From contig JAQXEE010000002.1 in assembly GCA_029251005.1 (NCBI GenBank), forward strand, positions 210 through 64,209: a stretch of DNA of 64,000 nucleotides. Direction: 5' to 3'. Both the position numbers and the translations under genes were made by a program. The DNA comes from Flavobacteriales bacterium. GTDB taxonomy: Bacteria; Bacteroidota; Bacteroidia; Flavobacteriales_C; GCA-002722245. Below, piece after piece: positions 19,932 to 23,420 of the stretch (position 1 is the stretch's first letter; each line of letters starts with the position of its first letter). The notes under the pieces are model-generated. The model had not been told where the DNA came from and did not search any database. It was given only the letters and a program-made list of their open reading frames with translations.

Positions 19932-20611
19932 TTTAAAAAATTAGATAGAATGTAAATTTAAGACGTAATCGTCTTAGATAGGTTGACTAAACAGTATTTA
20001 TTTAAATAAAATCGAATAACACCCATTGGGTAGAATTCAACCATTAATTTTTGCGTAACCGAACTCCGCTTCACCGGTCTTTATTACTTTAGGAACAAAA
20101 AAATAGTTCCATCTCTAATCATAATATATCTCAAAAACTGTAGGCGGCTTTTATTCTTCCGAAAAGATAATCATGCCTATTTTCGTTCACAGGATTCTTT
20201 TCTTTAATTGTTAGGAAACAATATTCCAACACAACAACATAATTGCCTTAACACTCTTTTTATTTCATAAAAAAAGCCAAATAATTATTTTTTGATCTTG
20301 TTTAATAATTCTCAATTAAGGTTCTAAATCCGTTATTTTAGACTGGTGACTTTCCATTTACTTTTTAGTTTACAAGTAATAGAGTGTAATCGTTTTTACG
20401 GAATCAGACTTTTAATTATTGCGAAAGTAAATCCCTAAGTCTCGTCTAACAGGAACTAAGTCTCCGTTTAATTTATAGTACCTTGTTGTTTTTGGAATAG
20501 ATGTATAACTATCAAATTTAAATTCGGAGAGGTTTACAAGAAATCACACCAAAAGTTTGAATTATTTCAAACTAAATTTAATTATATACTTAAGGTAATG
20601 CACTTCCTTAA

Positions 20612-21256
20612 TTAATACCAACGCTTCTTTTTCCTTTTCGAATTGGCAGATTTTCGACTTTTTTTACTCGTACCTTCAGTCCGTCTAACCTCAGCAGCAA
20701 ACTCTTTAGGATTTAAAACAAATGGATGATTTTTTTCGACAACTAACTTTAAGTCAAGTAAATCCTGAATATCTCTAACCATTTGTTTCTCTTCTAGAGC
20801 ACAAAAAGTGATGACTAAAGCTTTGGAGACAGCAATCGACTGACGATCTACATAATGCTCTGAAAAAGTAGGTAGATCAAAATTAATAATCATATCCACC
20901 CTATTCAATTCTAACTGCCTAAAAGCAGTATCCGTAACAACTAAAACATCAATCTTTCCACTTTTAAAACTCTTTAAAGAAACAGCATTTTCTTCCTCCG
21001 ACTTTTCAGAATGAATCCCAACTGAATCACAGCCAATACCTGCGAGCATCTTCACAACCTTATCCGCGCCAAAAGTGGTTCTTCTAAAAATGATCAACTT
21101 ACCTTTCAAACGCTTTCTTAAAACGTAAGTTAACAGTTCCATCTTCTTTTGCTTGGGAGCATAAAACAGCTTTTGCTTTAAACTCTTTAAAAAAGCAGGT
21201 AAAACCTCTTGTCCGTCCCAGGTTTTTAAAATTCCGTTTTCCATTATTATCATCAA
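20612..21256 (-). CDS. Stand-alone, degenerate DEAD-box helicase C-terminal (RecA2) domain, RhlE-derived
   Basis: LIIFRRTTFGADKV, GIHSEKS, FKSGKIDVLVVTDTAFRQLE, INFDLP, ITFC..EE, NHPF, basic tail KRKKKRWY. No DEAD/RecA1 domain; motifs V and VI altered. Confidence 0.75.
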   Translation of the reverse strand: MMIIMENGILKTWDGQEVLPAFLKSLKQKLFYAPKQKKMELLTYVLRKRLKGKLIIFRRTTFGADKVVKMLAGIGCDSVGIHSEKSEEENAVSLKSFKSGKIDVLVVTDTAFRQLELNRVDMIINFDLPTFSEHYVDRQSIAVSKALVITFCALEEKQMVRDIQDLLDLKLVVEKNHPFVLNPKEFAAEVRRTEGTSKKSRKSANSKRKKKRWY

Positions 21257-21536
21257 TTGTGATCGTGTAAAAGTAATCTAAATACAGAAGGATTGAAAGT
21301 TTGTTTTTTCTAGAAATCAATTCCGTTTAAATTTTAGCTTACTTAATAAAATGAATGATGTAAAAAGAAACTAATGAACCTGGATAAGCTAAGAAACGAG
21401 AGTCAAAATCTTTTTCAATCTAATTTAGTTCGTATCTACAACCAAATTCCCGGGAGTCTCGGCAATCTTTAAACAAGGGATTCATTTATTTAAAATAACC
21501 GATCAAAAGGTTTTGAGGTAAAAGTTGGAATAAAAA

Positions 21537-22199
21537 CTAGTAACGAATCGTCATAGAAAATCCTAATGAAGATTGAAACGCATTTACATCAACATCCCCC
21601 TCAAAAAGTCCGATTAAGTTTTTAGAAAAAACAGGTTCAATGTCTATTGCGATTTTACTATTAACAAGAGTATAGCCTACTCCGAAATCTCCTGAAATAT
21701 TAAAAATATTGTAATCTTTATCATCACTAGATGTTACGCTAGAAGAAGAGCCATCATTTGTATTCGTTATTAATGTATTTAATCTGTTTCGCAAATTAAC
21801 TAGTGAAGTAACCCCTGTTCTAATAAAAATACGTTTAGTCAATTTCAACCTCATATACATTGGTATCGTACCATAGTCATGGGTATAGCTAAGCGTTTGT
21901 TCCTCTGCTATATTTAAAATAATTGCTTCTGTTTGTTCGCTTAAGCTTTTGTAGCCTATTCCAAAACCAAAAGCAACCTTTGGAAATTTTTTTTCAATAA
22001 AAACTTCGCCATTAATTAATATTGAAGCCGCAAAACTTTTATATAAATCTTCGTTAATTTTCACTCTTAATTCATCACCCTCAAATGAAACGAAAGAAAA
22101 ATTAGGAGAGAAGCGAACTCCAAAACCTAATTTACCAGAGGCGAAAATTTCAGAAGATGAAAACAGGAAAATAAAAAAGAGACAAATTAAGAATCGCAT
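21537..22199 (-). CDS. Outer-membrane beta-barrel protein (porin/OMP_b-brl_2-like)
   Basis: Start moved to ATG 22199 (MRFLICLFFIFLFSSS, with TAAATTTG just upstream); alternating strands, YGTIPMYM, terminal LGFSMTIRY. Confidence 0.75.
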   Translation of the reverse strand: MRFLICLFFIFLFSSSEIFASGKLGFGVRFSPNFSFVSFEGDELRVKINEDLYKSFAASILINGEVFIEKKFPKVAFGFGIGYKSLSEQTEAIILNIAEEQTLSYTHDYGTIPMYMRLKLTKRIFIRTGVTSLVNLRNRLNTLITNTNDGSSSSVTSSDDKDYNIFNISGDFGVGYTLVNSKIAIDIEPVFSKNLIGLFEGDVDVNAFQSSLGFSMTIRY

Positions 22200-22343
22200 A
22201 TTCAAATTTAAACGGCTTAGTAAAAACATCTTATACATCAAAAACAATATAATGTTGCAGTTGCTGTTATTTAGTAACATTCAACAATGAAAAAAAGAGA
22301 TTTAAGATTGTATTTGTTGGCCTATAAAATAAGCCAACCCTTA

Positions 22344-23420
22344 TTATAAGCTTACAAAACTAATCCCTACTAACCCATAAAGTGAGGTTCCTAGTGAGGA
22401 AAAAGCTGCGATTTCTTGTTGTCCAAAAAAGCCTCTAAAAAATTCCTTCCCATTTTCTAATTCATCATACGTAAAACCATAATTTATCCGAGTACCCAGT
22501 TGAGCATTTAGCCAAAAAAAGCCAACGAGCTTTCTATTCCACTCAATTCGAGGTCTTACCGCTCCTCTTCTTAATTCAAAACTATTCCCATTATTAGATA
22601 GTCCTTCTAAATGATAGCTCCCACCCTCTAATTCGTATCCAAACATGATTAAACTGTTCTTATTCATCCAATACTTACCATTTGCCTTTGCAGGAAATAA
22701 AATCTCTGTTCCCCATTTTTCTTTTTTAGAAGTCCAATTGTACATAATGATAGGTACATAATTTAATTCTCCCACTCTGTAGGTTCGGGATGCCCCAATA
22801 GCCCATTGCAATCTGTCATGCGGTCTTTTCCCCCACAATACCGCAGCACTGTATTTGGTAAGTCCAAATGAATGAAAATCGGTAAAAGTGTAGTTTCCAT
22901 TATAATCAGCCTGCCCCTGAAATATTAAAAATTGTTTATCATTTAATGGCTTAAAAACTGTAGTGAATAACCCAGTTGTATTCAGAGAAGTCCTATCAAG
23001 TTCTGATAGTATAGGACCGTCCGAAGGATCTGCATCATCAATACTGAAATTAGTATTCATGTAATTGGCACCCATTTGCCACACAATGTTATTTCTTGAA
23101 ATTACTGGAATGTTTGCATTTAATCTTAATCCCCCAGTGTAGTTAACATTACTGGACTCTTTTATTTCCCAAGAAGCATCAGGAAGATAACCTATTGTGT
23201 CAGAAGTATTCATTGTGTAAGGAGACTGAACATCCCAAGCAACATTTATAAAACGATTAGGGCTTAAACCTATAATTTTAGGACTTGCAAATGTAGTAGC
23301 ACCTTCATCTGCATATTCTAAATCGTCGTACATGCTGTAATCTTCTTCATCTTGTGCGACCATTAACAGGGGGACAAGGAAAAATGAAAACAATAATACT
23401 TTTATATTCATAATTTTCAC
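22344..23420 (-). CDS. DUF6268-like outer-membrane beta-barrel
   Basis: Signal peptide; YVPIIMYNW, KWGTEILFP, GYELEGGSY, terminal GISFVSL. Confidence 0.65.
   Translation of the reverse strand: MKIMNIKVLLFSFFLVPLLMVAQDEEDYSMYDDLEYADEGATTFASPKIIGLSPNRFINVAWDVQSPYTMNTSDTIGYLPDASWEIKESSNVNYTGGLRLNANIPVISRNNIVWQMGANYMNTNFSIDDADPSDGPILSELDRTSLNTTGLFTTVFKPLNDKQFLIFQGQADYNGNYTFTDFHSFGLTKYSAAVLWGKRPHDRLQWAIGASRTYRVGELNYVPIIMYNWTSKKEKWGTEILFPAKANGKYWMNKNSLIMFGYELEGGSYHLEGLSNNGNSFELRRGAVRPRIEWNRKLVGFFWLNAQLGTRINYGFTYDELENGKEFFRGFFGQQEIAAFSSLGTSLYGLVGISFVSL

Follow-up and report, generated by a model that had tools for sequence, protein, structure and literature searches.

A conserved stand-alone RecA2 domain with a basic RWY tail, best explained as a catalytically dead DEAD-box pseudo-helicase

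We found that a minus-strand gene at 20612..21244 of the 64,000-nt stretch of Flavobacteriales DNA analysed here (the window) is best explained as encoding a functional, catalytically dead pseudo-helicase that consists of a stand-alone DEAD-box RecA2 domain and a C-terminal extension. DEAD-box proteins are usually treated as two-lobed, ATP-driven clamps; a RecA2 lobe kept together with its tail over approximately 50% protein divergence argues otherwise, suggesting that this lobe and the basic extension do something useful by themselves, without ATP. Its conservation further singles out the invariant RWY tail as a candidate functional element across a whole clade of flavobacterial helicases.

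A RecA2 lobe and tail with eroded motifs

The list of open reading frames contained an intact minus-strand frame ending at 20612 that, read from a TTG codon at 21256, encodes 214 amino acids (aa). The ATG at 21244 is the sole start codon common to five homologous loci and is likely the true start, giving a 210-aa protein (MENGILK...) whose coding sequence spans 20612..21244 on the minus strand, stop codon (20612-20614) included. A Pfam scan of this protein, hereafter the half-protein, assigned Helicase_C alone (E 4e-13, residues 38-138), with a weak match to Utp25_C (E 0.032), and positions 217-402 of the 434-position NCBIfam RhlE1 profile matched residues 24-208, from the interdomain linker to the C-terminus. 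Both results agree with an earlier note on this DNA, which had described a stand-alone RhlE-type RecA2 domain with a retained basic tail; the strings quoted there (TDTAFRQLE, DRQSIAVS, KRKKKRWY and TACTTTTA) are all present where it had placed them. The best-scoring named families were the RhlE models of E. coli and Pseudomonas (NF007882, NF053711), aligned from the linker to the C-terminal extension; unlike RhlE, the half-protein falls far below the family cut-offs (82-84 bits versus 743-750) and is not a helicase.

The RecA1 domain, with its Q motif, motif I (P-loop), Ia, Ib, II (DEAD) and III (SAT), is missing from the half-protein. When five full-length relatives were compared by tblastn with positions 20400-22400 of the window, the RecA2 half alone was matched (from about residue 197 of each relative onwards, E 1e-41 to 1e-52), and residues 1-196 of the same relatives gave nothing better than E 0.3 in this interval, which bears out the claim that no RecA1 remnant lies upstream. 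The 21 N-terminal residues (21182..21244, minus strand) correspond by homology to the final β-strand of RecA1 and the linker between the domains in the parent helicases; they align with LAxxILNNPETVxV... of the full-length relatives, have a dN/dS of 0.13-0.23 and were modelled by AlphaFold2 (AF2) with pLDDT 72-88. They are followed by the RecA2 core (residues 22-165; 20750..21181, minus strand), most of which has pLDDT >90, and by a C-terminal extension (20615..20749, minus strand) made up of an EKNHPF motif, a short helix and a disordered basic tail ending in ...SKRKKKRWY, its last eight residues (KRKKKRWY) being encoded at 20615-20638. The model as a whole has pLDDT 85 and pTM 0.80, and the tail drops below pLDDT 50 from residue 189. 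Sequence matches in the PDB were the RecA2 domains of DbpA, DDX3X and CshA (E ~1e-14), and Foldseek matched the RecA2 domains of YxiN, DDX3 and CshA (E 1e-12, rmsd 1.4-1.7 Å), the superposition on YxiN (2hjv) covering approximately 153 residues at the same rmsd. Judged from this model, the half-protein is predicted to contain a RecA2 fold. With a pI of 9.8 (11.1 for the tail), the protein shares its basic character with the C-terminal half of the full-length relatives, and its extension matches the basic, disordered one reported for RhlE proteins (PMC11260450).

Within the core, conserved motifs are divided between those kept and those destroyed. Motif IV, FRRTTFG (21068..21088, minus strand), is retained; it is near-identical to the FRRTKFG of the full-length clade and invariant but for its G across the half-proteins. 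The former IHGDxxQxxR (motif IVa) now reads IHSEKSEEEN (20987..21016, minus strand), having lost the Q and R of the consensus. In the eroded motif V, TDTAFRQLE (20909..20935, minus strand), TD is kept and ARG(I/L)D is lost; the latter differs between subclades, being FRQLE in one and SLAQLE, SLEHFS or ALQEFS in the other, a pattern suggesting that these positions can now change freely. Motif VI (20825..20848, minus strand) is destroyed, HRIGRTGRAG being replaced by DR and QSIAVS, or by DR and QLLVTG in other members, with a 3-residue deletion common to all half-proteins. Both motif V (T-D-x-x-A-R-G) and motif VI (H-R-x-G-R-x-G-R) are gone in 6/6 representatives of the half family, so that the destruction of ATPase motifs noticed earlier in the window's protein is true of every member. 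Because there is no P-loop lobe and there are no motif VI arginine fingers, the half-protein is predicted to be neither an ATPase nor a helicase, able neither to bind nor to hydrolyse ATP; as an enzyme, it lacks what defines a DEAD-box helicase. Automatic annotation calls the genes of the family 'helicase-related protein' (for example, 'helicase-related protein [Flavobacteriales bacterium]', MDA9328842.1) or 'ATP-dependent RNA helicase RhlE', and the second name is wrong because the protein cannot, by its motifs, bind ATP.

Other parts of the protein are mostly invariant across the family: LKQKLyYAPK.KKMELL (the first RecA2 strand and helix), motif IV, the TD of motif V, INFDLP, FC..EEK, EKNHPF and the RKS..SKKKK.RWY tail, together with the retained stretch of approximately 20 N-terminal residues that corresponds to the last RecA1 strand and the linker. 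The tail, shared with full-length helicases, is the most rigidly conserved feature outside the core: ...RKSxxSKKxKKRWY was found in 9/9 half-proteins and in 34/34 members of the full-length clade, and it is absent from the other helicases compared.

Conservation, distribution and origin

A search for RecA2-only homologues of about 210 aa returned proteins of 210-213 aa at 93, 82, 55 and 52% identity. The half-size frame was also present on seven metagenome contigs from independent TARA, JGI and ENA assemblies (93%, 81% and 51% identity), and all seven loci have in-frame stops or no start codons immediately 5′ of it. The window gene sits inside its contig (C6), and the TARA and JGI assemblies show the same structure, which settles the question of an assembly break. 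The frame, described as intact in the earlier note, is intact in all homologues, down to 51% identity. In five pairwise comparisons of the window gene with homologues (Nei-Gojobori estimates), including those with dS >0.6, dN/dS was 0.10-0.17: 0.10-0.12 against the 93% and 81% homologues and approximately 0.17 against the 51% homologue, for which dS is saturated. Against the homologous locus L034, the half-helicase gene has a dN/dS of 0.096 and five flanking genes have values of 0.058-0.134. The N-terminal segment, the core and the tail are each separately constrained. These estimates indicate that the gene is under purifying selection. Its GC content (0.355 versus 0.333 for the window) gives no sign of recent transfer.

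The family has few members, all of them from uncultured marine bacteria. The 21 other genomes of the same GTDB order all lack the gene, and it is in no other species representative of the genome contig collection searched; among five same-genus genomes, the window gene is the only Helicase_C match in a frame shorter than 360 aa. This narrow distribution implies a function that is dispensable for close relatives. An exhaustive search of 1.84 billion representatives yielded one other 50% cluster of the family (P0006) and a fragment (P0013), then a 419-aa RWY-tailed helicase at 42% identity, then generic helicases. Apart from that fragment, the short matches (≤260 aa) keep motifs V and VI intact in all cases but one (P0129) and are thus gene fragments, not additional half-families. 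The exception, P0129 (229 aa), is a RecA2-only singleton with eroded motifs V and VI that is 31% identical to the half-protein.

In the genome and metagenome contig searches, the next-best relatives (35-43% identity) were all full-length DEAD-box helicases of 409-419 aa that end in ...RKSxxSKKxKKRWY and come from Flavobacteriaceae (Lutibacter, Polaribacter, Urechidicola and MAGs). The half-protein resembles these RhlE-type enzymes, exemplified by the gene of Lutibacter aestuarii (NZ_JBHTIC010000006.1, locus L014) and by those of Polaribacter and Urechidicola MAGs, in its RecA2 core, motif IV, INFDLP, (E)xHP(F/Y) and tail; unlike the half-protein, they have a RecA1 domain with all motifs and intact motifs V and VI. 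In some Flavobacteriaceae (L014:1499-2797, L058:1519-2799), the gene of the RWY-tailed enzyme is preceded, at a distance of approximately 2.6 kb, by a second DEAD-box helicase gene.

When a tree was built from the region that corresponds to the half-protein, the nine half-proteins formed one clade (support 100) on a stem of 1.04 substitutions per site, joined to the RWY-tailed helicases at 98 (SH-aLRT, tail columns included). A tree of core columns, with the tail and the N-terminus left out, again recovered the half clade (100/100) and the joint clade (94/87), with a stem of 0.86; the placement of the half clade as sister to the full-length RWY clade or nested within it had low support (55/25). 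The 3-residue motif VI deletion common to all half-proteins is a second, tree-independent mark of a single origin. The trees and this deletion point to a single origin of the half-proteins next to the RWY-tailed helicases, and by descent the half-protein appears to be a truncated member of this RhlE-type clade. The family would have arisen once from a flavobacterial RhlE-type helicase of approximately 411 aa ending in ...RKSxxSKKxKKRWY. Loss of RecA1 would have been followed, on the long stem branch, by a burst of substitutions that stripped the ATP-binding and arginine-finger residues (the motif V ARG, QxxR and motif VI, with its 3-residue deletion), and then by slow evolution under purifying selection.

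An unstable locus around a stable gene

Approximately 70 nt 5′ of the ATG (21245..21315, minus strand) are conserved, including in the homologous loci L031 and L035, whose upstream neighbour differs: a divergently transcribed response regulator gene in these two, as against a gene for a secreted protein of 247 aa (222 aa in L034 and L031). This block contains the promoter-like element TACTTTTA (21268-21275), which the earlier note had proposed as a -7 variant and which is kept despite the change of neighbour; the string TAyTTTTACA is invariant in five loci. The Bacteroidota -7 element is TAnnTTTG, and TAyTTTTACA would fit it with A replacing the final G. A scan for σ70 promoters and terminators gave nothing above chance, the σ70 consensus being the wrong model for Bacteroidota, and an Rfam scan of the gene's flanks found no element.

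Set against window positions 21257-21536, L031 (3913-5999) and L035 (2170-5994) have, directly upstream of the half-helicase gene, a divergently oriented gene for an OmpR-type response regulator of 232 aa together with one or two others. In L031, the regulator and the further gene or genes are inserted between the half-helicase gene and the gene for the 222-aa secreted protein; in L035, this last gene falls outside the available sequence. In the window, the corresponding 247-aa signal-peptide protein (21537-22280, minus strand) has no Pfam match and is 90-93% conserved in L034 and L031. Directly downstream of the half-helicase gene, and forming its context rather than part of it, the window holds remnants of a decayed TonB-dependent receptor gene (19932..20611, minus strand), with fragments of residues 212-317 and 509-562 in a 680-nt 'intergenic' gap; L034 has an intact copy of the receptor gene (780 aa), and the copies in L031 and L035 carry frameshifts. 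Its decay at the same locus and on the same timescale is an internal control: genes decay here, and the half-helicase gene does not.

Gene gain and loss are thus concentrated at this locus. In other species of the genus, the genes that flank the half-helicase gene lie on different contigs or 15 kb apart, and the site is taken by queA, a 2OG-oxygenase-like gene or another receptor gene; the half-helicase gene and that of the 247-aa signal-peptide protein are both absent beside the DUF6268 gene. A full-length helicase at this site in close relatives was looked for and not found, the closest relatives carrying the half-size gene and the same-genus species none. The 51% homologue (L037) adjoins a gene for a T9SS-secreted giant protein, which indicates that it also comes from Bacteroidota, and has no neighbour in common with the window. 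The neighbourhoods of the half gene and of the full-length RWY helicases contain no conserved partner gene, and no mobile-element genes lie near the half-helicase gene. PADLOC gave marginal generic helicase matches alone (E >1e-4) among defence families, and a phage tblastn gave generic matches alone (≤34% identity).

In such surroundings, the gene might be taken for the decaying remnant of a recently deleted helicase, or for an assembly artefact whose frame is open by chance. The instability of the neighbourhood, where a receptor gene is decaying next door and other genes have been gained or lost between strains, and the gene's absence from seven other species of the genus would suit this explanation, which we regard as highly improbable: the frame has stayed open to a distance at which dS is saturated, dN/dS of approximately 0.1 equals that of bona fide neighbours, no RecA1 remnant was found in the interval searched, independent assemblies show an identical structure and the promoter-like block upstream is conserved. 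A pseudogene was rejected on the intact frames and low dN/dS, with the true pseudogene adjoining as a contrast, and a recent deletion of a helicase was rejected because same-genus species have neither a full nor a half helicase at the site.

Possible functions and related proteins

On balance, we think that the half-protein is a module that binds RNA or an RNP particle independently of ATP, a reading drawn from its sequence. The basic module would grip RNA, or an RNA-protein particle (the ribosome, for example), through what remains of the RecA2 surface (motif IV, the TD of motif V and INFDLP) and through the invariant lysine-rich RWY tail, and it would serve as an RNA chaperone, annealer or anchor rather than as an unwinding enzyme. 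Against RNA binding stands the loss of QxxR and the motif V ARG, two RNA-contacting elements of RecA2, and binding by the core may be weak, resting mainly on the tail. The narrow distribution, and the absence of a conserved neighbourhood tying the gene to any pathway, also count against a binding module.

The half-protein could instead be a protein-interaction adaptor or decoy, whose RecA2 domain and tail dock on a usual partner of RecA2 (for example, a degradosome ribonuclease or an RraA-like regulator) and titrate or recruit it without RNA remodelling. We consider this the main alternative, possible but unlikely. Isolated RecA2 domains are docking platforms in solved complexes among the structural neighbours, namely SrmB RecA2-RraA (2yjt), the C-terminal domain of eIF4A, and DDX6 RecA2 with CNOT1, EDC3 or LSM14, and the invariant RWY end resembles a specific docking peptide more than generic charge; yet none of the contexts examined contains a linked partner gene, and the genome lacks any full-length member of the parental RWY clade with which the half-protein could compete, which removes the simplest dominant-negative version. 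The window's genome encodes approximately eight full-length DEAD-box genes, none with an RWY tail or membership of the RWY clade, which makes it unlikely that the half-protein interferes with the parent enzyme in a dominant-negative way and, to that extent, weakens the earlier suggestion of a dominant-negative helicase modulator. A partner in trans is offered by an unlinked gene of the same genome (G000 C80:18260-18874, minus strand; L080:4258-4875, minus strand) that encodes a RecA1-only DEAD-domain protein of 205 aa (PF00270, E 4.8e-21) with an intact P-loop (SGKS), DDAD in place of DEAD and motif III (SAT) lost. The two proteins might pair as a split helicase forming a two-lobed RNA clamp, and both seem to be present in another MAG of the species group (two NCBI accessions close together). 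We judge such pairing improbable, since the RecA1-only family is very broad in Bacteroidota and the RecA2-only family tiny, one other genome (G008, 81% complete) has the RecA1-only gene and no short Helicase_C frame, both proteins contain the last RecA1 strand and so overlap instead of meeting at a clean fission point, and motif VI, needed for cleft closure on ATP, is gone from one as motif III is from the other. The breadth of the RecA1-only family, the genome with that gene alone and the shared strand also show that the RecA1-only protein is not an obligate partner of the RecA2-only gene, and retention of the strand in both halves means that they are not fission products.

The preferred reading of the half-protein as an ATP-independent binding module can be set beside other single-lobe proteins. 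The RecA1-only family (~203 aa) has >1000 matches in Bacteroidota at 58-75% identity, all annotated as DEAD/DEAH box helicases, with hosts in Bacteroidales, Marinilabiliaceae, Prolixibacteraceae, Flammeovirgaceae and Draconibacterium. It is conceivable, if doubtful, that Bacteroidota repeatedly make DEAD-box helicases into non-unwinding single-lobe proteins; here, the RecA2-only protein, anchored by its tail to RNA or the ribosome, would form with the unlinked, P-loop-bearing RecA1-only protein a non-covalent, nucleotide-sensing RNA clamp, the RWY tail being a specific docking peptide with which the half-protein, instead of a helicase, takes up a site on the ribosome or the degradosome.

Among better-known proteins, Utp25 is eukaryotic, has a role in ribosome assembly and keeps both RecA-like domains; the pseudohelicases Utp25 and D. 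radiodurans PriA both retain the full two-lobe architecture. The half-protein differs from Utp25 in being bacterial and single-domain. The nearest concept is the pseudohelicase, as presented in reports on Utp25 (PMC9539457) and on D. radiodurans PriA (PMC4504706), the former describing Utp25/Def of the eukaryotic SSU processome as a DEAD-box-derived protein that has lost its catalytic motifs and is retained as a functional, non-enzymatic factor. A search of the available literature found no paper on bacterial RecA2-only proteins or on Helicase_C-only 'helicase-related protein' clusters. The importance of the half family is modest unless the broader single-lobe 'helicase-related proteins' share a role. 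Such proteins may be a recurrent class: the ESM Atlas contains sizeable clusters of Helicase_C-only proteins (204-235 aa) from Campylobacterota, Verrucomicrobiota and Bacteroidota that have the same one-domain architecture and size as the half-protein, having been matched to it by language-model features.
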